Positions 5,411 to 56,835 of a DNA stretch of 64,000 nt are shown one piece after another. Positions within the stretch are counted from its first letter, which is position 1; each line of letters opens with the position of its first letter. A program made the translations under genes and the position numbers. This stretch comes from Candidatus Ligilactobacillus excrementigallinarum. GTDB lineage: Bacteria > Bacillota > Bacilli > Lactobacillales > Lactobacillaceae. The notes beneath the pieces were generated by a model that saw nothing but the letters and a program-made list of their open reading frames with translations, was not told the DNA's origin and did no database searches. Location: positions 2,354 through 66,353 of the forward strand of contig DXFP01000007.1 in assembly GCA_019114385.1 (NCBI GenBank), written 5' to 3'.

Positions 5411-5451
5411 AGCTTTCCCTTTCTACATTGTAAAGTTACTTTAATTATACA

Positions 5452-5504
5452 CAAAAAAGAGGTTGTGACATACGTCCAGCCTCTATTTCTATATTCGCAT
5501 AATC
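5452..5504 (-). repeat. Family-1 repeat, copy J (right-end module only)
   Basis: GAGGTTGTGACATACGTCCAGCCTC hairpin plus ATTTCTATATTCGCATAATC. On the minus strand it lies head-to-tail after family-2 copy j. Confidence 0.8.
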
Positions 5505-5649
5505 AAACTTCAGCTTAACCAGTTAAGTGTTGCTTCGTTGCTGTATAGTCAAGTTTCGTCCTAATTTGCTATGCATAAGCATGCATATCGCTATTCGGAA
5601 CGCACTGCAAAACTTACGCCACCAAGCTCGAAGTGGTCTTTACATCCTT
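5505..5649 (-). repeat. Family-2 repeat, copy j (sense to the HAD gene)
   Basis: On the minus strand, TAG A AGGATGTAAAGACCACTTCGAGCTTGGTGGCGTAAGTTTTGCAG... aligns with copy a. Confidence 0.8.
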
Positions 5650-9448: not shown

Positions 9449-9486
9449 AATTTTCAAAAAAGATAGTCTTTCCCTAATAAAAAAAT

Positions 9487-9554
9487 GCTCATAGTCCGAA
9501 AATTTACGGCATCGGGTAGAAACTTGCTAACCATATCATAGCGATTATATAAGC
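9487..9554 (-). promoter_or_regulatory. Purine riboswitch aptamer, guanine/xanthine type
   Basis: Minus strand GCUUAUAUAAUCGCUAUGAUAUGGUUAGCAAGUUUCUACCCGAUGCCGUAAAUUUUCGGACUAUGAGC matches the B. subtilis xpt aptamer almost position for position. The discriminator is C (GACUAUG), so it is guanine class. Confidence 0.92.
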
Positions 9555-9578
9555 TTTTATTTAATTAATATGTTAAGG

Positions 9579-9728: not shown

Positions 9729-10682
9729 ATGAAAACTTTCGATTATCAAGATGTTCAGTTAATTCCGAACAAATGCATTTTAAAAAGTCGAAAAGAAGCT
9801 GATCCGCAAATTAAATTTGGACCGTTAACTTTTAAAATCCCCGTTGTTCCCGCTAACATGGCAAGTGTAATTGATGAAAATCTTGCCGCATGGTTAGCAG
9901 ACAACGGGTACTTTTATGTCATGCATCGTTTTAATCCTGAAGCTCGGTTTGATTTTGTGCGTAAAATGCATGAAAGTCATCGTTTCGCTTCAATTTCTAT
10001 CGGAATCAAAGATCAAGAATATCAATTAATCGATCAGTTAAAAGCAGCTGGACTTGAACCCGAATATATCACTGTTGACGTTGCTCATGGCCATTCAATT
10101 TATGCCATGAAGATGGTTGAATACCTTAAAAAACAATTACCAAATTCGTTTGTAATTGTCGGCAATATCGCTACTCCGCAAGCTGTCATTGATTTAGAAA
10201 ATGCTGGTGCAGATGCTACTAAAGTTGGGATTGGACCCGGTAAAGCCTGCATCACTAAATTGAAAACGGGATTTGGAACTGCTGGATGGCAGTTGTCAGC
10301 AATTCAGCAATGCAGTGCAGTAGCACGCAAACCAATCGTCGCTGATGGCGGTGTTCGTCATAATGGTGATATTGCTAAATCAATTCGATTTGGAGCTTCA
10401 ATGGTAATGATCGGCTCCTTATTCGCCGGACATCTGGAAAGTCCTGGAGAAATCGTTACCATTGATGACCAAAAATATAAAAAGTATTGGGGGTCAGCAT
10501 CCGCAATCCAAAAGCAAGATGTTCACAACGTTGAAGGTAAACAATTGCTCGTTCCGTATCGCGGTAAAATCGCTGATACGCTGCAAGAAATGGAAGAAGA
10601 TTTGCAGTCCGCTATTTCGTATGCTGGAGGCAAAGATTTGAGTGCGTTGCGTGGAGTAGAATATGTGATCACTAGAAGGTAA
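9729..10682 (+). CDS. guaC: GMP reductase
   Basis: IMPDH/GMPR TIM-barrel without a CBS insert, 317 aa, with the catalytic-loop region [20 protein letters not shown]. Confidence 0.85.
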
Positions 10683-10693
10683 AAAAGGTATAT

Positions 10694-10825
10694 TGTAAGG
10701 AAAGAACGCACGAATTACGCAAGATTGGTTCGGAGAATTTTGAACTTACAGACATGCCTGTTTGTTTTAAAACCCGATTATGTAGATATAAAAATTGAGG
10801 TTGGACTTATGTCACAACCTCTTTT
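10694..10825 (+). repeat. Family-1 repeat, copy B (sense to guaC; left hairpin missing)
   Basis: Core ACGCACGAATTACGCAAGATTGGTTCGGAG, then ACAGACATGCCTGTTTGTTTTAAAACCCGATTATGTAGATATAAAAAT, then hairpin GAGGTTGGACTTATGTCACAACCTC and a T-run. Confidence 0.9.
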
Positions 10826-10902
10826 TATTTATTATTTTTGTTGACAAGCAACAAAAATAATAATATGATATTCAGTGAAATTAATGAGAGAGGATTTTTT
10901 TA

Positions 10903-14091: not shown

Positions 14092-14257
14092 GAAGGTGTG
14101 ACAAAACACCTTAAACAGGCATGTTGCAAGGAAAAAACGAACGAATTACGTAGGATTGATTCGGAGTTTTTTTGAATTTACAAACATGCCTGTTTGTTTT
14201 GGAAACCGATTATGCGGATATAAAAATAGAGGTTGGACTTATATCACAACCTCTTTT
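14092..14257 (+). repeat. Family-1 repeat, copy C (full length, sense to galE)
   Basis: GAAGGTGTGACAAAACACCTT; long stem AAACAGGCATGTT...AACATGCCTGTTT; core ACGAACGAATTACGTAGGATTGATTCGGAG; right hairpin AGAGGTTGGACTTATATCACAACCTCT plus a T-run. Confidence 0.92.
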
Positions 14258-14261
14258 GATT

Positions 14262-14437
14262 TATGGAAAACTATTTGATTGCATTACTGCTTAAAAGTTG
14301 AGCTTCGAGCTACCAAGCTAAATGTAAGTCCGAAACACTCCGAATTTTGGCTCCGCCATTCGTTCGTGTTCCTCAGCTTACATCACGCTTGGCTTAACGC
14401 TCTTCACATCCTAGTAGTTGAGTTCCGGCCTAACTTG
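14262..14437 (-). repeat. Family-2 repeat, copy c (full length, sense to cls); fused tail-to-tail with copy C
   Basis: Minus strand AGGATGTGAAGAGCGTTAAGCCAAGCGTGATGTAAGCTGAGGAACACGAACGAATGGCGGAGCCAAAATTCGGAG...GGACTTACATTTAGCTTGG...AACTTTTAAGCAGTAATGCAATCAAATAGTTTTCC. Confidence 0.88.
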
Positions 14438-24566: not shown

Positions 24567-24581
24567 TTAATTTAGATATAA

Positions 24582-24724
24582 AAACAGGCATGTCGTAAAA
24601 AAAAGCTGAACGAATTACGTAGGATTAATTCGGAGGTTTTTAAATTTACAGACATGTCTGTTTGTTTTGGAACCCGATTATGCAGATACAAAAATAGAGG
24701 TTGGACTTATGTCACAACCTCTTT
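24582..24724 (+). repeat. Family-1 repeat, copy D (sense to pepX; left hairpin missing)
   Basis: AAACAGGCATGTCG...GAACGAATTACGTAGGATTAATTCGGAG...ACAGACATGTCTGTTTGTTTTGGAACCCGATTATGCAGATACAAAAATAGAGGTTGGACTTATGTCACAACCTCT. Confidence 0.9.
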
Positions 24725-24758
24725 GTTATAATCAAATCACAAATGATGTTCCTATTTT

Positions 24759-31248: not shown

Positions 31249-31375
31249 GAAGATGTAACAAAACACCAAAAACGGGCATACTGTAAGAAAAAATGAACAT
31301 GTCTGTTTTGGAATCTGATTATGCAAAGATAAAAATAGAGATTGGACTTATGTCGCAATCTCTATTTTTTTACAA
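31249..31375 (+). repeat. Family-1 repeat, copy E (sense to the flippase gene; core deleted)
   Basis: AGAAGATGTAACAAAACACC...AACGGGCATACTG...GAACATGTCTGTTTTGGAATCTGATTATGCAAAGATAAAAATAGAGATTGGACTTATGTCGCAATCTCT plus a T-run. Confidence 0.8.
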
Positions 31376-31554
31376 AAAAATCCCCCACGAAGATAACTTC
31401 ATGGAGGAATTAAAGGTTTGTATCTGTTTATAGTGAACTTCTATAAACACTCATCATTATAACGCCTGAATGTTCAATTTCCAATAATAAAAAGCAACAT
31501 AATATGTATTTTCGTTAAACAAAATATGTTTCAATCAGCGTTTTATCAAACCTT

Positions 31555-33362: not shown

Positions 33363-33752
33363 ATGCGGGTAAGACGCATTGATCATATTGTTTTAACCGT
33401 CAGCAACATCGAAAAAGCCACACGATTCTACCACGAAGTTTTCGATATGCCAGTCATTGAAGACCAAACTGACGAAAATGTAACGACTTTACGCTGCGGA
33501 CATCAATTGATTCGCTTACAAAAAGCCGACCGCCCAACTGATTTAAAAGCTAAGAATCCAACCATTGGGGCAGCCGACTTATGCATTGTCGTTGGCGATG
33601 ATATTGAAGATGTTGAAAATCACTTGAAAAGTTACTTTGTAAATATTGTTGAAGGACCTGAAAAGAAATTGGGTTCTGAAGGTGAAATGACATCGATTTA
33701 CATTACCGATGATGATCAAAACTTGATTGAAATTTCATCATATAAAAAGTAA
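33363..33752 (+). CDS. VOC/glyoxalase-family protein
   Basis: 129 aa. IDHIVLTV followed by a beta-alpha-beta-beta-beta pattern typical of the glyoxalase/bleomycin-resistance fold. Confidence 0.75.
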   Translation: MRVRRIDHIVLTVSNIEKATRFYHEVFDMPVIEDQTDENVTTLRCGHQLIRLQKADRPTDLKAKNPTIGAADLCIVVGDDIEDVENHLKSYFVNIVEGPEKKLGSEGEMTSIYITDDDQNLIEISSYKK

Positions 33753-33754
33753 AA

Positions 33755-33906
33755 AATAGAGGCTGTGACATAAGTCCAGCCTCTATTTTTATCTCTGCAT
33801 AATCAGAAAGAACATGTTCACAAGTTTTAAAACTTCTGAACCAATCCTACATAATTTATACATTCTTTTCTTACAATTTATCCGCTCTTTAAGTTTTGTC
33901 ACACTC
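33755..33906 (-). repeat. Family-1 repeat, copy F (degenerate full length, sense to the SDR gene)
   Basis: AGAGGCTGTGACATAAGTCCAGCCTCT...CTGCATAATCAG...CCAATCCTACATAATT...TTAAGTTTTGTCACACTCTC. The left-hairpin remnant abuts the SDR stop codon. Confidence 0.8.
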
Positions 33907-34659
33907 TCATTTTTCTAACCAGCCACCATCAATCGGCACAGCTGTTCCATGAATGTAATCTGCTCGCGGACTAGCTAAAAACATAGTTAATTGTGCTACT
34001 TCAGCGGGTTGAGCCCATCTTTTAGCAGGAGTTTCACTTGCGACCCATTTAGCCATATGGGCATCGCCAGCAAAATCTGCAGCATTCATTGGTGTATCGA
34101 TTGCCCCTGGTGCAATGCAATTAGCACGAATCCCTTGAGCCGCATAATCATAATCAAGTTGTTTAGTATAGCCGATAATTCCGGCTTTAGCTGCAGTATA
34201 AGCTGCTCCACCGCCACCAGCAACCAAGCCAGCAATCGAAGCCATATTAACAATTGTTCCATGCTTCTGAGCTAACATTGTTGGCAACACTAAATTAGTG
34301 ATTAAAAACATACTTTTCAAGTTAGTGTTAAAAATATTGTCCCATTGTTCTTCTGTTGTTTCTAATGTGGGGGCAAAACCATCTAAAATCCCAGCAGTAT
34401 TCAATAAAATATCAATTGAATTTTCAGCTAAAATCGGTTTTAGCCATCTGTTAACTGATTCACGTTTACGAACATCACACTGAGTAAAATAAAAATTATC
34501 AAATTGTTTCAATTCCGTTATTTGCTCATTGAGATTAATGTCTGCTCCGAAAACAATTGCTCCAGCTTCAAGCATTGCTTTAGCTTGTTCAAAGCCAATC
34601 CCAGAAGCAATCCCAGTAATAACAACCTTTTGTCCCTCAAACTCTGGATATAAATTCAT
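33907..34659 (-). CDS. Classical short-chain dehydrogenase/reductase
   Basis: TGIASGIG cofactor motif, NTAG, and a catalytic Ser...YTAAK. The ATG at 34659 overlaps the stop of the upstream DUF2829 gene (TAATG). Confidence 0.85.
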   Translation of the reverse strand: MNLYPEFEGQKVVITGIASGIGFEQAKAMLEAGAIVFGADINLNEQITELKQFDNFYFTQCDVRKRESVNRWLKPILAENSIDILLNTAGILDGFAPTLETTEEQWDNIFNTNLKSMFLITNLVLPTMLAQKHGTIVNMASIAGLVAGGGGAAYTAAKAGIIGYTKQLDYDYAAQGIRANCIAPGAIDTPMNAADFAGDAHMAKWVASETPAKRWAQPAEVAQLTMFLASPRADYIHGTAVPIDGGWLEK

Positions 34660-34886
34660 TAATCTACTAACTTCCAATCATCTGCTAATACATCGCATGA
34701 AGTTGGCATAAATTGTGATAATGAAGGTTGTTCTTTAGTTTTAATCATCAAATATGGATTAACGGCTTCACCATTGTAAGTATCATTATTTACTACAAAA
34801 ATATATTCTTCAGAGCCGCCCCAACCTTCAGTTCGAACTGCTTTCTTACCTTTTTTCAATTCTGGTAAAACTTCTTCAAATGTCAT
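34659..34886 (-). CDS. DUF2829 (Tad2-like) small protein
   Basis: 75 aa. The N-terminus MTFEEVLPELKKGKKAVRTEGW and the C-terminal DVLADDWKLV match my recollection of the DUF2829 family pattern. RBS GGAGGA lies 14 nt after the queT stop. Confidence 0.7.
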   Translation of the reverse strand: MTFEEVLPELKKGKKAVRTEGWGGSEEYIFVVNNDTYNGEAVNPYLMIKTKEQPSLSQFMPTSCDVLADDWKLVD

Positions 34887-34900
34887 CTGTTTTCCTCCAA

Positions 34901-35401
34901 CTATTTTGTTAAATCAATTCTTTTACTAATAATTCCAATCACAAATGCTCCAATTACCATTGAAACAAATTCACCAATTGCAACTGTTAAGTATGTAGGC
35001 CAAAATGGCAAATGACTGACATAGTGCAACTCTAATGCAACTGTCCATGTCATCAATGTACATACAACTACTGCAATAGTTAATTTTCCAGTCGTTGACT
35101 TAACCTTCCGGCTTAATAAATAACTTAAACCTGTCATTAGCAGTGTTCCTAATGAGCCAAAAATTACATCTACAATTCCTAGTGGAGAAAAGCAATTAGC
35201 AATTGCACAGCCAATTGTTAATGCCCAAATGTAACGCTTATTAAACACTGCTAAATTATTAAAGATTTCTGAAATTCTGAATTGAATACTGCCATAGCTA
35301 ATCGGTGCCAACAGTAATGTCACCGCAGCATATAATGCAGCCACGATTCCAGCTTTAGTTAATCCTAATAACTTTTGATTTTTGGTTCTCACAGGTACCA
35401 T
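34901..35401 (-). CDS. queT: Queuosine-precursor transporter QueT (ECF S-component-like)
   Basis: 166 aa with 5-6 TM segments and the QueT/COG4708 pattern (SIQFRISE, NKRYIWALTIG). A preQ1 aptamer lies immediately upstream. Confidence 0.8.
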   Translation of the reverse strand: MVPVRTKNQKLLGLTKAGIVAALYAAVTLLLAPISYGSIQFRISEIFNNLAVFNKRYIWALTIGCAIANCFSPLGIVDVIFGSLGTLLMTGLSYLLSRKVKSTTGKLTIAVVVCTLMTWTVALELHYVSHLPFWPTYLTVAIGEFVSMVIGAFVIGIISKRIDLTK

Positions 35402-35404
35402 ACC

Positions 35405-35447
35405 TCTCTCTAGTTTTTTTAAGTGGGATTTTCGCGAACCACTCGCC
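35405..35447 (-). promoter_or_regulatory. preQ1 riboswitch (class I-like aptamer) overlapping the queT RBS
   Basis: Minus strand GAGUGGUUCGCGAAAAUCCCACUUAAAAAAACUAGAGAGAGG-N4-AUG. It has a 5-bp stem, a loop starting UUC, CCC on the 3' side, and an A-rich tail ending ACUAG that runs into the Shine-Dalgarno sequence. The P2 pseudoknot pairing was not verified by eye. Confidence 0.7.
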
Positions 35448-35499
35448 TTTAAGTATATAACAAAACGATTCTCGAATTCAAAGTGCTATATTTGCAAAT

Positions 35500-35526
35500 A
35501 AAAAAACGAGATTCAAAAAAATCCCG
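35500..35526 (-). terminator. Weak intrinsic terminator after degV
   Basis: Minus strand CGGGATT-tttt-GAATCTCG (one G-U pair) followed by TTTTTTT. Confidence 0.4.
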
Positions 35527-35535
35527 TTTCGATTT

Positions 35536-39185: not shown

Positions 39186-39290
39186 GCAAGTGCGAAAGTC
39201 GTCTTGAGTCAGAATAGTATAAGCTGTCCATTGCGCCTGAATAAGTTAGCCATTCAAAGTACTTGCGTACTTATCTTAGAACGACACAAA
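39186..39290 (+). repeat. Family-2 repeat, copy g (degenerate); fused tail-to-tail with copy G
   Basis: GAAAGTCGTCTTGA...GTATAAGCTGTCCATTGCGCCTGAATAAGTTAGCCATTCAAAGTACTTGCGTACTTATCTTAGA aligns with copy a. Confidence 0.65.
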
Positions 39291-39453
39291 TAGGAATTGT
39301 GACATAAGTCCAGCCTCTATTCTTATATCCGCACAATCAGGTTCCAAAACAAACAGGCATGTCTGTAAATTCAAAAGCCTCCGAATTAATCCTACGTAAT
39401 TCGTTCGTTTTTTCCTTACAACATGCCTGTTTAGGGTGTTTTGTCACACCTTC
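39291..39453 (-). repeat. Family-1 repeat, copy G (full length, sense to pduO)
   Basis: The reverse complement carries GAAGGTGTGACAAAACACCCTAAACAGGCATGTTG...ACGAACGAATTACGTAGGATTAATTCGGAGG...ACAGACATGCCTGTTTGTTTTGGAACCTGATTGTGCGGATATAAGAATAGAGGCTGGACTTATGTCACAATTCC. Confidence 0.9.
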
Positions 39454-46111: not shown

Positions 46112-46281
46112 AGGAAAGTGTGACACAACACCAACAAACAGGCATGTTGTAAGGAAAAGCTGAACGAATTATGTAGTATTGATTCGGAGTTTTTCAACTT
46201 ACAGTCATGCCTGTTTGTTTTTGAACATGATTATACAGATATAAAAATAGAGGCTGGACTTATGTCACAGCCTCATTTTTT
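46112..46281 (+). repeat. Family-1 repeat, copy H (full length, sense to the ATPase gene)
   Basis: GGAAAGTGTGACACAACACC...AAACAGGCATGTTG...GAACGAATTATGTAGTATTGATTCGGAG...ACAGTCATGCCTGTTTG...GATTATACAGATATAAAAATAGAGGCTGGACTTATGTCACAGCCTC plus a T-run. Confidence 0.9.
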
Positions 46282-46289
46282 CTATTTTA

Positions 46290-46400
46290 AAAAGCCTTTG
46301 TTCTTCTTAGTTGTGCATATCTTGCCTAGCAAGACTAAATATAAGTACGTAGTTCACAGACGCGACCTGCGACCTGTATACGCAAATCATTCTGTCTGTT
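46290..46400 (-). repeat. Family-2 repeat, copy h (degenerate, sense to dtpT)
   Basis: On the minus strand after the dtpT stop: ...GCGTATACAGGTCGCAGGTCGCG...ACGTACTTATATTTAGTCTTGCTAGG, alignable with the copy c stem region. Confidence 0.55.
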
Positions 46401-48111: not shown

Positions 48112-51100
48112 TTATTGTTGCTTGCGATAAACAATCATTCCGACTATTCCCACTAAAACAATTCCAGCAATTACTGCTAAAACTCCTTCAGCTTGGTCGC
48201 CAGTTTGCGGTAAGACACCTTGGCTCTTACCTTTTCCAGTTCCATTTTCACTGTTACCATTTTGCTTTCCTATACTTGTATCAGCATTGCTACTTGCACC
48301 TTGAGCAGAACTGCTGCTTGATTGTACCGGTGTTGCAACTGGAGCAAGCGGAGCAGTTGATGTTTCATTACTACTTGAAATTACATTCACACTTGAACTT
48401 GATGATTCAACTGGTGCAGGTACAAGTAATTGACTTGAAGTACTTGAACTCATTACTGGCGTAGGAATTGAAGCAGCTGTACTTGAGCTTGAATTCATTA
48501 CTGGTGTTGAAATTAAAGCGGCTGTACTTGAGCTTGAATTCATTACTGGTACTGACGTCTTTGAACTTGAGCTTGATACTGGAGTCAAAGTTTGTGAACT
48601 TGAACTGCTTTGCACTACCGGAACAATTATACTGTTGCTTGAAGATGCAGTAATACTACTTGAACTACTATTAATCAAACTTGATGAGCTTGATTTGCTG
48701 CTCGAACTGCTGCTTACCAAACTTGATGAGCTTGATTTACTGCTCGAACTGCTGCTTACCAAACTTGATAAGCTTGATTTGCTGTTTGAACTGCTGCTTA
48801 CCAAACTTGATAAGCTTGATTTGCTGCTTGAGCTACTAATTACCAAACTTGATGAGCTTGATTTACTGCTTGACAAACTTGATGAACTTGATTTACTGCT
48901 TGAACTTGATGATTGATTCTTTTCATCAACTAACTCATTATTGCTTGGTAAGTTTGAAGTTGCTTTACCATTCTTCAATGTTACTTGGTAAGTCTTAGTT
49001 AATTTTTCATAACCGCTTGGCGCATTCGTTTCGGTTAATGTGTAAGTTCCATCTGGAATATTTGTAAATGAAACTTTACCAGTGCTATCTGAAGTTGCTT
49101 TTTGTTCAAAACCATTGCCGCTCAAATTAAAGGTTGCACCTGCAAGCCCCTTCTTGGTATCACTTGCAATCTTAGTAAAACTGAAGTTACCTTTATATGC
49201 TTCATCTGTCCAAACTTTGGCATAAGTACTATTGTTCATTCCTAACATCGTTACTTTGCCGTTTTGGACATCCACTGATCCGGCACCTAAAGTATCAACC
49301 TTGTATCCATCTGGTGCCATGATTTCAACTAAAATGTATTGACCATTTGGCACGTTATTAAAGGTTACTGTTCCATCTGCATTTGAAGTTGCAGTTGCTA
49401 CAACTGTTCCTTCACTTGTCTGTGGATCATAAATTAAACTTTGTAATTGGAAAACGGCTCCTTGCAAACCTTTAGTATTATTAGCATTTGCTTTCTTAAA
49501 ACTGAAACTAGCTTCTGTTTGGTCAACCACAGTATAGTTGCCATTGCTGCCTTTTAAATCAGAGCTTGAAACTGTTCCGTCATTATTTACAGTTAAGTTA
49601 TATACCGTACCATCTGTTTGGTATCCAGTTGGTGCTTGGGTTTCTTGAACTGTATAGTTTCCAGGCTCCAAATTATCAAATACGGCATCACCATTTGTAT
49701 CTGTTGTCACATTACTTTGCAATCCGGTTTTACTGTTTGTCAAAGTAAATGTTGCTCCAGATAACGCTTTGCCGCTTGAGTTCGTCTTTTTAATCGTTGC
49801 CTTACCAACCGTCTTTTTATCTGTAATTTGCATAATCTTATTAGTTACAGTTTGGCCATCGTAAGTAATCTTTGGTTCGCCATTTTGAATCGTCACTGAA
49901 ATTGTTCCGTTGATCTTTTCATAACCAGTTGGTGCTTGAGTTTCACTAATTGTATAGGTTTTACCATTTGTTAATCCTGTGAAGGTAATCTTTCCATCTG
50001 CATCTGAAGTTGCATTTTCAGTCTTACCATTTCCTGTTAATTCAAATGTTGCACCTTGCAAATTATTACCTTGATCATCGACCTTTTGCAAAACAACCCC
50101 ATTCTTTGGAATTATTCCACTGATTCCGCCTGAAATTGACGTATTTGACACTGTCTTTGAAGTTTGGACAGACTTCTTTGAACCATCCGTTGTATTATAT
50201 GTCATTTTCGCACTATTTGATAATGATGGAATTGAGTGATCAGAAACCATTCCACGATAATCAATTTCCCATGCTGAACCATCTAACAAATCAGCATCAA
50301 ACGTAAATGTTACGGTTTGCGGAGTTGAAGAACTGACATCAATTGAGCCATTCAATTCGCTTTGGAATTGTTTATAGTTCAATACGGTTACGTTGCCGTA
50401 TTGGTCCTTAATTCGAAAAGCAAAAGTATTTTGATTAAATGTTTGGCCTTTACTTAAGTTATCTACGATTGAAATTTCACCAGTCCCATTGGGTGTAACT
50501 CCTGAAATTTGCCAGTTAACATTTCCACCAGTTCCCATGTAGCCGCTCTTTGTAAATTTCTGATTATTTACATCTACAGATGGCTTTACGGGAGCTCCGC
50601 CTGTTCCTTGACCTGTACCATGGTTAGAATTAATCGAAACCTTTGGCGGAGTAATGTTTGGTACACCCCAGTGTGTATTCACTGTGTGCGTAATTGTATT
50701 TCCATTCGTTGTCGATGTAGTTCCATTAGTTGTGGCATGTGCTTGGACAGTAAATGTAAACCATCCTTTAACGTCTTGCAAAGTTTGACCATCGATTCCG
50801 TTATTAAATATAATCTTTGCTTCGCCATTTGAAACATACACCGTTCCTAATGCTTGACCTTCATTGTTCATCAGTGTTTTCGTTGCAGTATAACCGACCA
50901 AAGCAGGCGGAAGCTTAATTTCAATATAATCTCCCGGTTGAATTTGATCTTCCTTCTTTTCGCTGAATGTTACTGTAATCTGTAAATTTTGCCCATTTGA
51001 TACTGTATTTTTATTTACAGAAATATTATCAATAATTGCAGGGTTTGCATCCGTCAGATTTTGGCCACCAGCCGCTTTGGCCATTTCAGGTCTCAAAATC

Positions 51101-56618: not shown

Positions 56619-56784
56619 AAGGGTGTGACAAAACACCTTAAACAGGCATGTTGCAAGGAAAAAACCAAACGAATTACATAGTATTGATTCGAAGGTTTTT
56701 GAATTTACAGACATGCCTGTTTGTTTCGGAACCCGATTATACGGATATAGAAATAGAGGCTGTACTTATGTCACAACCTCTTTG
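56619..56784 (+). repeat. Family-1 repeat, copy I (full length; lies after pepC's own terminator)
   Basis: AAGGGTGTGACAAAACACCTTAAACAGGCATGTTG...AACGAATTACATAGTATTGATTCGAAGG...ACAGACATGCCTGTTTGTTTCGGAACCCGATTATACGGATATAGAAATAGAGGCTGTACTTATGTCACAACCTCT. Confidence 0.92.
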
Positions 56785-56835
56785 ATATATATAATGAATT
56801 TTACTCCATATTTGACCTCTTTAGGCTTGGGGCTT

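Follow-up and report, generated by a model that had tools for sequence, protein, structure and literature searches.

The DUF2829 and SDR genes that follow the queuosine-precursor transporter gene queT in this DNA form an obligate, translationally coupled pair. It is a strong and as yet unpublished candidate for an enzyme still missing from queuosine-precursor salvage: judged by its gene neighbourhood, the logic of the riboswitches and the cofactor motif of the SDR, it probably acts on a 7-deazaguanine (Q-family) compound. The explanation that we favour, tentatively, is that the pair is a preQ1-supplying salvage enzyme module and that the operon serves salvage under preQ1 feedback. As the initial annotation had it, no published link between a DUF2829/SDR pair and queuosine metabolism was found in a literature search.

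Host and microbiota compete for queuosine, a tRNA modification that resembles a micronutrient, and lactobacilli, enterococci and streptococci are major "users" of Q precursors. In these organisms, the import and hydrolysis of queuosine are known; the route from queuine to the preQ1 needed by TGT is a recognised hole. It has been stated that the gap may be closed by an as yet unknown enzyme and that a non-orthologous QueL replacement may exist (2025 preprint, PMC12632869). Ligilactobacillus salivarius possesses TGT, QueA, QueH, two copies of QueK, QueT and QrtT and lacks QueC, QueD, QueE, QueF and QueL, and QueL was detected in 0 of 2914 Lactobacillales genomes; QueK, QrtT, QueT, TGT and QueA are retained in the order. 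A conserved pair linked to queT offers a concrete and cheaply testable candidate for the gap, for which complementation and LC-MS assays are available.

Layout of the operon and its riboswitch

All elements of the operon were found on the minus strand of the window (the whole 64,000-nt stretch that was analysed), in the following order of transcription:

35503–35530, minus strand: terminator of the upstream degV gene (12-bp stem and T-run), the 5′ boundary of the unit
35452–35481, minus strand: promoter-like site, TTGAAT-18 nt-TATACT (consensus scan, 9/12 matches)
35404–35448, minus strand: preQ1-I riboswitch aptamer (Rfam RF00522)
34901–35401, minus strand: queT, S component of the queuosine-precursor ECF transporter (PF06177)
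34659–34886, minus strand: 75-aa Tad2-like (DUF2829) protein (PF11195)
33907–34659, minus strand: 250-aa classical SDR (adh_short_C2)
33750–33790, minus strand: intrinsic terminator, AUAGAGGCUGGACUUAUGUCACAGCCUCUAU followed by UUUUUU, inside a dispersed intergenic repeat

The -10 hexamer of the promoter-like site ends about 4–8 nt upstream of the aptamer P1 stem, a position that fits a predicted transcript starting at the aptamer. The aptamer, AGUGG-UUCGCGAAAAUC-CCACU-UAAAAAAACUAG, runs straight into the queT Shine-Dalgarno (SD) sequence (GAGAGAGG). It comprises a 5-bp P1 stem, the UUCG...UCCC loop and an A-rich tail whose final CUA lies against the SD, and it matches RF00522 over the full model (positions 1–45; 43.6 bits against a gathering score of 39, E = 1.5e-5), so that the class-I assignment made earlier holds. 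No hairpin is present between aptamer and SD in this locus, and the expression platform, with no terminator hairpin after the aptamer, is therefore translational. By analogy with the rest of its family, this aptamer would act as an OFF switch: in a transcript starting at the aptamer, plentiful preQ1 would make the class-I pseudoknot close on the A-rich tail and the first part of the SD, which would reduce queT translation. In general, preQ1 riboswitches turn off genes whose products increase the supply of preQ1.

The queT product matches PF06177 over its whole length (positions 1–141/141; 150.4 bits against 33.7, E = 5e-44), and orthologues with 39–80% identity occur in 55 of 80 related loci. 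Its true start is ambiguous, since ATG 35401 lies only 1 nt past the GAGAGG SD and GTG 35392 has canonical spacing. The layout downstream is as initially annotated. The queT stop and the DUF2829 start are separated by 14 nt (TTGGAGGAAAACAG), which contain the GGAGGA ribosome-binding site (RBS) of the 75-aa reading frame at a spacing of 6 nt, and the DUF2829 stop overlaps the SDR start codon in TAATG. A site scan detected no terminator-like site within the operon. The first strong terminator, a hairpin with a U-run that marks the end of the unit, lies about 120 nt past the SDR stop, within a repeat family (D4/D3) with at least 10 copies in the window; the RNA fold of this region (33740–33915, minus strand) reaches -48.9 kcal/mol (z = -5.7), and a convergent glyoxalase gene ends at 33752. 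That preQ1 acts on all three genes is less firmly supported than initially stated: the aptamer lies at the queT RBS, but since the switch works at the level of translation and DUF2829 has an RBS of its own, the two downstream genes may not be under its control even here.

Conservation of the pair and its linkage to queT

The SDR gene lies directly 3′ of DUF2829 in all 80 species-level genome loci, in 79 of 80 streptococcal metagenome loci and in all five provirus-edge loci that reach far enough, and the stop and start of the two genes overlap in 64 of 79 loci. With regard to queT, it adjoins the pair in 52 of the 80 genome loci and lies within 6 kb in three more; these loci come from the closest 80 among at least 528 relatives, and their proportions apply to the near clade alone. 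When reciprocal look-ups were begun from the SDR instead, queT was found in three of three cases (Sporosarcina, Bacillus and Carnobacterium). The queT-DUF2829-SDR linkage thus extends over more than 20 genera and two gene orders, which supports the earlier proposal that the pair is connected with queuosine-precursor salvage.

In the queT-DUF2829-SDR order, a preQ1-I aptamer, laid out as in this operon, precedes queT in 17 of 18 loci (calls were made by a sequence-pattern scan, and three loci were settled by eye). The DUF2829-SDR-queT order is commoner and carries a preQ1-II type element between SDR and queT in all 37 loci. This element shows covariation in 12 of 14 pairs and consists of a covarying P2 helix, a CCUUUG/AAAGGAG SD pseudoknot and an inserted hairpin, like the preQ1-II riboswitch upstream of queT in Streptococcaceae and other Lactobacillales. 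Because of loop insertions, most class-II copies, including those of Bacillales, score below the Rfam gathering threshold: at this threshold, a scan of 12 representative loci returned aptamers only in L001 and L067, and the enterococcal and Bacillales elements were detected by small-region E-value scans together with the covariation test. Lying downstream of the pair, the class-II element cannot control it, and co-regulation of the pair by preQ1 holds only for the queT-first (Ligilactobacillus-type) order. Since single-copy queT recurs next to the pair in two orders and with two riboswitch classes, the linkage appears to be under selection.

The remaining 25 of the 80 genome loci have the pair with neither queT nearby nor an aptamer. 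In streptococci, queT was near the pair in none of 80 metagenome loci; no aptamer was found in these loci, and the pair is placed in a PadR/membrane-protein context. Upstream of DUF2829 in loci that are not behind a preQ1-I aptamer, only genus-level promoters or palindromes were found, and neither an aptamer nor a conserved RNA or operator precedes DUF2829 in the DUF2829-SDR-queT and pair-only loci. No queK or QueK-like nucleoside hydrolase gene (DxDxxxDD motif) was detected near the loci, and a Rosetta-stone search returned no DUF2829-SDR fusion. These features, together with the distance of the streptococcal pair from queT, count against the salvage reading. The multidomain DUF2829 members are of phage type (a Tad3-Tad2 fusion, tandem Tad2 and crAss001_48).

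Beyond lineage-level synteny, no other neighbour family recurs. The lineage-specific neighbours comprise BioY, HIT, NUDIX, DUF1054, O-methyltransferase, metallophosphoesterase, Mga, NTP_transf_6, PadR and SUKH proteins; in Lactiplantibacillus, a HIT protein gene starts 4 nt after the SDR and is followed by a NUDIX protein gene.

Features of the Tad2-like protein and the SDR

The 75-aa protein matches the Tad2-like family PF11195 over the whole model (positions 1–73/73; 76.6 bits against 25, E = 2e-21), which confirms its initial naming as DUF2829, and profile matches to Tad2 entries in the PDB range from E = 4e-12 to 1.5e-10. The AF2 model (pLDDT 96) is predicted to share the fold of SPO1 and Myroides Tad2 (TM 0.81–0.84). 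With the phage Tad2 sponges (SPO1 gp34.65, Myroides ModTad2 and HgmTad2/AcrIIA7; PF11195), it has in common the N-terminal helix, the GW loop, the beta4 Ile/Thr and the C-terminal D-x-L-A-x-D-W helix. Unlike them, it is chromosomal and housekeeping-like, always has an SDR as its next gene, is of minimal size (73–78 aa, with a short beta2-beta3 insertion), has altered phosphate- and water-contacting residues, and occurs outside any context of phage, Thoeris or CBASS; the phage Tad2 homologues come without an SDR. The absence of phage context noted initially was borne out: the gene has housekeeping neighbours, and neither phage nor defence context was found in the window, where PADLOC gave no matches. 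A phage-borne origin was considered for the IMG/VR matches and rejected, as they are chromosomal genes just outside an integrase at contig or provirus edges.

Residues invariant in 80 of 80 sequences are MTFE, L7, P8, R18, W22, E26, P44, Y45, I48, P61, C64, D65, L67, A68, D70 and W71. The gcADPR contacts of SPO1 Tad2 (W25, N26, I63, T65, D67, H71, W73, S76, T78 and D79) were compared with the small protein, which has only part of the set. W25, I63, T65 and D79 are kept as W22, I48, T50 and D65, and E/D52 and T62 are also kept, whereas N26 is replaced by G/S/E, H71 by S/T, W73 by F and T78 by an invariant Cys. On this comparison, the pocket is a mixed, retuned Tad2 pocket, in a fold known to take many nucleotide-like ligands. 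Cys64, which occupies the position of the adenine-contacting Thr78, was considered as a clade-specific catalytic residue and then given less weight, as some true phage Tad2 homologues share it.

The SDR matches adh_short_C2 (E = 4e-58) and NCBIfam NF005118/PRK06550 (345 bits against a cutoff of 270). Partner SDRs from seven other genera score 329–393 bits on NF005118; by these scores, all partner SDRs belong to one orthologous family, and the NF005118 model appears to describe exactly the family of DUF2829 partners. Invariant in 80 sequences are the TGxxxGxG cofactor motif (T15-G16..S19-G20-I21-G22), the NxAG motif (N87-T88-A89-G90) and the Ser-Tyr-Lys triad (S141/Y154/K158) of classical SDRs, and also Asp40 at the end of beta2, GGGG148-151 and DGGW244-247. 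In classical SDRs, an Asp at the end of beta2 marks the NAD(H) type. The Gly motif of this SDR contains no basic residue, which together with the invariant Asp40 constitutes an NAD(H) signature and therefore argues for oxidation rather than for reduction with NADPH.

As a classical SDR that carries the triad and scores above the NF005118 cutoff, it resembles FabG-like "3-oxoacyl-ACP reductase". Unlike genuine FabG, however, it has the NAD-type Asp ending beta2 rather than NADPH determinants and lies outside a fatty-acid synthesis cluster: in the loci inspected, its context was never a fab cluster and consisted of queT/DUF2829 instead, and it fell below the cutoffs of the FabG equivalogs (TIGR01830, 182 bits against 297.75; NF004198, 178.5 against 296). 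NF005118, a model with a generic name, is the only one of these whose cutoff it exceeds. The database name is probably a misnomer. Neither protein of the pair has a radical-SAM match in Pfam, as QueL would, or a match to the T-fold QueF family in Pfam or NCBIfam.

Proposed function and alternative explanations

If the pair supplies preQ1, QueT, with a shared ECF module encoded elsewhere, would import the precursor, and the DUF2829 protein and the SDR, made in a 1:1 ratio by coupling, would together form a two-subunit NAD-dependent enzyme. The Tad2-fold subunit would provide a small-molecule pocket that has lost the phosphate-binding Asn and kept the diol-binding Asp and the aromatic clamp, and the SDR would perform the redox chemistry. 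The most likely reaction would lead from salvaged queuine, or a queuosine-derived base, to preQ1: oxidation of the cyclopentenediol at its allylic C4-OH by NAD+ would give an enone, from which the C1 amine would be lost by beta-elimination (retro-aza-Michael), freeing preQ1 for the canonical TGT/QueA/QueH route. For this specific reaction, queuine to preQ1, the gene context and motifs make a possible case, which is best held with some doubt.

Such a pair would be a functional analogue of QueL, which is absent in Lactobacillales, that does not rely on radical SAM. The analogy covers the proposed net reaction and the physiological role and does not imply membership of the QueL family: the fold is unrelated, NAD would be used rather than SAM and an Fe-S cluster, and oxidation-elimination is proposed rather than radical chemistry. 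It is conceivable, though doubtful, that the pair is the non-orthologous QueL replacement of Bacilli, that is, a two-subunit, oxygen- and Fe-S-independent NAD+ "queuine lyase" by which preQ1 is regenerated from host- or diet-derived queuine or queuosine. The phyletic pattern of the pair is no clean complement of QueL, because Streptococcus pneumoniae lacks QueK and QrtT and Lysinibacillus has the de novo pathway including QueF; complementarity with QueK and QueL is thus only partly informative.

The closest described arrangement is found in Clostridioides difficile, where, by the account in PMC11477304, a preQ1-I riboswitch precedes queK-qrtT-queL (Yuan et al. 2019). In that operon, the salvage enzymes feed preQ1 to a canonical TGT in a host without de novo preQ1 synthesis. 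Both operons have a class-I preQ1 aptamer, three genes and an ECF S component of the QueT/QrtT family in combination with further genes. The present operon differs in that its switch is translational and acts directly on the SD of the transporter gene, and in that a Tad2-like protein and an SDR stand in place of the nucleoside hydrolase QueK and the radical-SAM lyase QueL, with which they share no homology.

A substrate outside the queuosine family is an alternative of limited but real weight. The pair would then be a housekeeping enzyme for another nucleoside-like or NAD/ADP-ribose-derived metabolite, and its adjacency to queT would stem from history, from a promoter region used in common or from a looser physiological tie. 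The 25 genome and 80 streptococcal loci with no queT nearby fit this view, as do the restriction of an upstream riboswitch to one gene order, the HIT and NUDIX genes of Lactiplantibacillus, which suggest nucleotide or ADP-ribose-type chemistry, and the known Tad2 ligands, which are ADP-ribose derivatives and cyclic nucleotides. It fits less well that queT is the only neighbour family recurring across two bacterial orders, on either side of the pair and with two riboswitch classes, and that the phosphate-contacting Asn of Tad2 is lost.

Close to the initial hypothesis is a rather unlikely alternative in which the Tad2-like protein would bind or buffer an imported 7-deazapurine (preQ1 or preQ0) in the cytoplasm, as a chaperone that perhaps passes it to TGT, and the SDR would modify the imported base or a by-product without generating preQ1. 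The Tad2 members characterised so far are indeed sponges that bind their ligands very tightly and are not enzymes; the scaffold of the pocket is conserved, and the queT linkage holds here as well. However, this explanation leaves an obligate, translationally coupled NAD-type dehydrogenase partner unaccounted for; preQ1 has no hydroxyl or carbonyl group on which an SDR could act; an OFF switch driven by the bound ligand suits supply genes better than a sink; and some genomes and loci have the pair but not queT. With the logic of an OFF switch and an SDR of NAD type, production of preQ1 by an enzyme is a better fit than modification of an imported base.

A two-component preQ0 reductase analogous to QueF is improbable. 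In this case, a thioimidate would arise between Cys64 and the preQ0 nitrile, as with the Cys of QueF, and hydride transfer by the SDR would yield preQ1. Its product would suit the riboswitch logic, L. salivarius and most carriers lack QueF, and the Cys, invariant in 80 of 80 sequences, lies where SPO1 Tad2 contacts adenine. On the other hand, the Asp40 signature indicates NAD(H) rather than NADPH and is a poor fit to a four-electron reduction, Cys64 is also found in genuine phage Tad2 homologues without an SDR, and Lysinibacillus carriers already have QueF. We know of no precedent for nitrile reduction catalysed by an SDR.

Finally, a domesticated anti-defence or immune-signal sponge beside an unrelated, true FabG-type ketoacyl-ACP reductase is favoured by the family names in Pfam and NCBIfam and by structural identity to Tad2 and is scarcely credible, given changed key gcADPR contacts, a window without phage or defence context, "viral" matches that are chromosomal genes at provirus edges, and an SDR with an NAD-type motif, failed FabG equivalogs and no fab context in the loci inspected.

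A chromosomal, non-defence Tad2/DUF2829 branch bears on the origin of the phage sponges and on the ligand range of the fold. If the salvage reading is true, phage Tad2 would be related to a subunit of a housekeeping salvage enzyme for tRNA modification, having either evolved from it or been domesticated into it. The names "Thoeris anti-defense 2-like" and "3-oxoacyl-ACP reductase" are probably misleading annotations in thousands of genomes.

Organisation of the transcription unit and of its obligate pair

The nearest relatives belong to Ligilactobacillus, at 89% identity for L. salivarius and L. aviarius. A preQ1-I aptamer, queT (the S component of an ECF transporter for queuosine precursors), a DUF2829 (Tad2-like) gene and a short-chain dehydrogenase (SDR) gene follow one another in the order proposed by the initial annotation, which Rfam and Pfam matches, the 14-nt gap and the stop/start overlap bear out in every detail.

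Elements of the queT unit, in window coordinates
Upstream of the unit, minus strand: degV (PF02645), with its own terminator at 35530..35503
35481..35452, minus strand: promoter-like TTGAAT-18-TATACT, after the degV terminator
35448..35404, minus strand: preQ1-I aptamer, full-length Rfam RF00522 (43.6 bits, gathering score (GA) 39, E 1.5e-5)
35401..34901, minus strand: queT (PF06177, E 5e-44)
34886..34659, minus strand: DUF2829/Tad2-like ORF, 75 aa (PF11195 end to end, E 2e-21, the family assumed at first sight)
34659..33907, minus strand: classical SDR, 250 aa (adh_short_C2, E 4e-58)
~33790..33750, minus strand: terminator, GC-rich hairpin and U-run (z = -5.7), within a dispersed intergenic repeat

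The A-rich tail of the aptamer (…UAAAAAAACUAG) directly abuts GAGAGAGG, followed by the queT ORF, and no hairpin was found in the window between the aptamer and the Shine-Dalgarno (SD) sequence, so a translational expression platform is predicted. The queT start is uncertain, since the ATG at 35401 lies too near the SD (1 nt past it, GAGAGG-U-AUG) and an in-frame GTG three codons later (35392) has the canonical spacing of 9-10 nt. The queT stop is separated from the DUF2829 ORF by 14 nt, TTGGAGGAAAACAG, and the DUF2829 TAA overlaps the SDR ATG. As had been claimed, a terminator scan of the window detected no site inside the three genes; the first strong terminator past the SDR is the hairpin in the repeat, which opposes a convergent glyoxalase-family gene.

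The DUF2829-SDR pair is obligate. A one-genome-per-species scan detected the small protein's relatives, at least 528 in number; the best 80 were fetched, so that the frequencies given here apply to the near clade alone. An SDR orthologue (44-77% identity) directly follows DUF2829 in all 80 genome loci; stop and start overlap in 64 of 79 (by 4 nt in 41 and 1 nt in 20), and the widest gap among these 79 is 60 nt. Partner SDRs from seven genera (Enterococcus, Pediococcus, Lactiplantibacillus, Lysinibacillus, Aerococcus, Lactococcus, and Streptococcus) all belong to a single NCBIfam equivalog, NF005118/PRK06550 (329-393 bits, cutoff 270), with the next-best family at 209 bits or less. Such coupling also characterises 79 of 80 metagenome loci from a streptococcal subclade that includes S. 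dysgalactiae, S. pneumoniae and S. oralis, among others. No SDR was found beside genuine phage Tad2 homologues on large viral contigs. Eleven "viral" hits (~50% identity) were rejected as phage genes, being chromosomal genes just outside an integrase at the edges of provirus calls. These streptococcal IMG/VR predictions (L081-L091, e.g., L087 2721-4928) overrun the integrase by one to two genes and include chromosomal DUF2829 (and the SDR); "phage Tad2" catalogues built from IMG/VR would be contaminated by such entries.

The clade profile matches solved structures of Tad2, the phage anti-Thoeris sponge (8v3e and 9eib, E 4e-12; SPO1 8sme, E 1.5e-10), and a confident AF2 model (pLDDT 96) superposes on SPO1 and Myroides Tad2 with TM 0.81-0.84. 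Published gcADPR contacts of SPO1 Tad2 were transferred by HMM alignment and compared with clade conservation. W25 and I63 correspond to invariant W22 and I48, T65 is kept as T50, D67 and S76 keep their character as E/D52 and T62, and D79, which binds the free ribose hydroxyls in Tad2, is invariant as D65. N26 is replaced by G/S, with loss of a phosphate contact, H71 by S/T, W73 by F, and T78, an adenine hydrogen-bonding residue in Tad2, by invariant C64. On this alignment, the predicted pocket scaffold is retained yet retuned, with the phosphate-binding residue gone. Known ligands of the Tad2 fold are gcADPR, His-ADPR, cGG, cCMP/cUMP and N7-cADPR. The clade is compact (~10 representatives at 50% identity above 89 bits, in a superfamily of 3,683; 632 clusters at 90% identity). 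Among longer, more distant members, nine of ten scanned consist of Tad2-like domains, either single, in tandem or combined with domains of phage type, and a weak DUF7823 match below threshold also occurs in one of the ten. One of the more distant relatives, P0307 (221 aa), joins two anti-Thoeris domains, Tad3 (PF25185) and Tad2 (PF11195), in a single polypeptide.

Invariant SDR features comprise TG..SGIG, NTAG, Ser141/Tyr154/Lys158, a GGGG stretch preceding the catalytic Tyr, and C-terminal DGGW. In classical SDRs, an acidic residue at the end of beta2 and no basic residue in the glycine motif specify NAD(H). Both features are present here: beta2 ends in an invariant Asp40, and no basic residue occurs in the glycine motif. 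NAD(H) is therefore the predicted cofactor, which would favour the dehydrogenase direction in vivo. The equivalog NF005118/PRK06550 coincides with this partner family, and its name, "3-oxoacyl-ACP reductase", is probably wrong because the SDR falls below genuine FabG equivalog cutoffs; together with Asp40 and the non-fab context, this suggests a propagated misannotation. Among solved structures, generic SDRs are the closest; they include BacC and other NAD-dependent alicyclic-alcohol dehydrogenases.

Linkage to queT and placement of preQ1 riboswitches

The suggested linkage holds across related genomes: queT and the pair adjoin in 52 of 80 loci, in two orders. The order queT-DUF-SDR occurs in 18 (Ligilactobacillus, Loigolactobacillus, Agrilactobacillus, Liquorilactobacillus, and Pediococcus) and DUF-SDR-queT in 34 (Enterococcus, Tetragenococcus, Companilactobacillus, Lacticaseibacillus, Lactococcus termiticola, Lysinibacillus, Solibacillus, Viridibacillus, Lentibacillus, and others). 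In three loci, queT is non-adjacent but within 6 kb (E. cecorum, L030; a Bacillota MAG, L032; Virgibacillus halophilus, L050), and 25 contain the pair only (Lactiplantibacillus, Aerococcus, several enterococci, and two Loigolactobacillus). Look-ups from the SDR in unsampled genera revealed Tad2-like, SDR and QueT genes in Sporosarcina ureae, a Bacillus species and Carnobacterium gallinarum. Linkage is variably retained inside Enterococcus and Loigolactobacillus, which points to several gain/loss events. When all flanking ORFs were clustered, no other neighbour family recurred beyond lineage-level synteny, and no QueK-like hydrolase was found among them.

Some neighbours are lineage-specific. 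In the L. plantarum group (L061 6972-8673; L046, L052, L057, L064, L068), a HIT-family protein begins 4 nt past the SDR, with a NUDIX hydrolase and then a hexapeptide acetyltransferase behind it; these partners may suggest a substrate of nucleotide type. A BioY-family ECF S-component gene is convergent to the pair in 12 enterococcal loci (L025 7038-7577, minus strand, and 11 others), whether or not queT is present; synteny is the probable explanation, although the arrangement places still another vitamin-type S component next to the pair. In some Enterococcaceae (L036 7004-7576, L038, L039, L042), a PF06042 nucleotidyltransferase gene overlaps the SDR stop and precedes preQ1-II/queT.

A preQ1-I aptamer lies immediately 5′ of queT in 17 of 18 queT-first loci. 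In the DUF-SDR-queT type, queT has its own promoter-like site and a conserved element in 37 of 37 cases (CACUGCGRC-ACUU…CCUUUGG-YCGCAGU-UAUUA-hairpin-AAAGGAG), in which RNAalifold shows 12 of the 14 pairs to covary. Its sole Rfam match is preQ1-II, above GA in L067 (69.9 bits) and below it (GA 47) in Enterococcus (28 bits) and Lysinibacillus (26 bits), the low scores of Enterococcus and Bacillales being due to long loop insertions. Such elements (L019 6991-7092, L071 7055-7188, and 35 more loci) include those of the Bacillales Lysinibacillus, Solibacillus, Viridibacillus, Virgibacillus and Lentibacillus. Reviews restrict this class to Lactobacillales/Streptococcaceae; its distribution seems broader than curated.

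No conserved element was found 5′ of DUF2829 outside the queT-first order among the fetched genome loci. From the placement of both riboswitch types, queT is under predicted preQ1 control everywhere among these loci, but only the Ligilactobacillus-type order places the pair behind a switch. The initial annotation expected all three genes to respond to preQ1. The switch does precede all three; however, it acts on the queT ribosome-binding site and DUF2829 has its own, so control of DUF2829 and the SDR would be indirect even here.

Possible role in queuosine salvage

It was reported that L. salivarius possesses TGT, QueA, QueH, two QueK, QueT and QrtT but lacks QueC/D/E/F, QueL (the radical-SAM queuine lyase yielding preQ1) and Qng1, and that 2,914 Lactobacillales genomes contain 821 QueK, 749 QueT, 309 QrtT and no QueL (PMC11130926, Dataset S2). 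L. plantarum has QrtT and four QueK without QueT, which matches its pair-only locus. Streptococci carry QueK beside QueT-family genes, canonical preQ1-type TGT and QueA without QueL, and a non-orthologous QueL replacement may exist (PMC12632869). In C. difficile, a preQ1-I switch is described as controlling queK-qrtT-queL (PMC11477304), the same operon logic as here with different enzymes.

Because preQ1 riboswitches act as OFF switches for genes raising preQ1 supply, and an obligate pair of a Tad2-fold protein and an NAD-type SDR repeatedly adjoins queT, the pair beside queT is best read, tentatively, as a preQ1-supplying salvage module. Its substrate is likely a Q-family compound. In the most economical chemistry, the NAD+-dependent SDR/Tad2-fold pair would oxidise the allylic hydroxyl of the queuine cyclopentenediol, after which the C1 amine would leave by beta-elimination and so free preQ1. 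This specific conversion is doubtful. Against a salvage role stand the lack of riboswitch control of the pair in most lineages, the streptococcal pair loci unlinked to queT, the absence of QueK/QrtT from S. pneumoniae, the de novo pathway of Lysinibacillus, and the lack of any fusion protein among 120 listed of the 632 clusters.

An unrelated nucleoside or ADP-ribose-like substrate, in keeping with the HIT and NUDIX genes of Lactiplantibacillus, is unlikely. It is less probable still that the Tad2-like protein is a binder or buffer. A Cys-dependent preQ0 reductase is very improbable; Cys64 is not clade-specific, as some phage homologues share the Cys. A residual anti-defence role is hardly credible, and PADLOC defence models matched none of the queT, DUF2829 and SDR proteins.

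Riboswitch and queT are textbook, whereas neither the conserved module of DUF2829 and SDR nor its link to queT appears to have been described: full-text searches found no paper linking DUF2829/Tad2-like proteins or an SDR to queuosine, preQ1 or queT, as had been presumed. Module and link together render an explicitly posed open question testable.

Repeats and other elements of the window

The copy that terminates the queT operon belongs to a dispersed intergenic repeat family (~80-144 nt per copy, both orientations), with copies at 1539-1602, 5443-5506, 10681-10838, 14113-14270, 24581-24738, 31300-31379, 33743-33806, 39277-39340, 46134-46291 and 56640-56797. Every copy bears the hairpin AGAGGYTGTGACATAAGTCCARCCTCT between A/T runs, an arrangement that would terminate transcription in both directions, and the family looks REP- or MITE-like. 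The neighbouring genes are housekeeping (ROK kinase, GntR, glyoxalase, DegV, two CrcB, thioredoxin, and an MFS transporter). In addition, a purine riboswitch aptamer occurs at 9472-9572 on the minus strand (RF00167, 73.5 bits, GA 37), and tandem repeats of 45-nt and 42-nt units (3 to 6 copies) in an apparent coding region at 48443-48903 possibly encode a repetitive surface protein.
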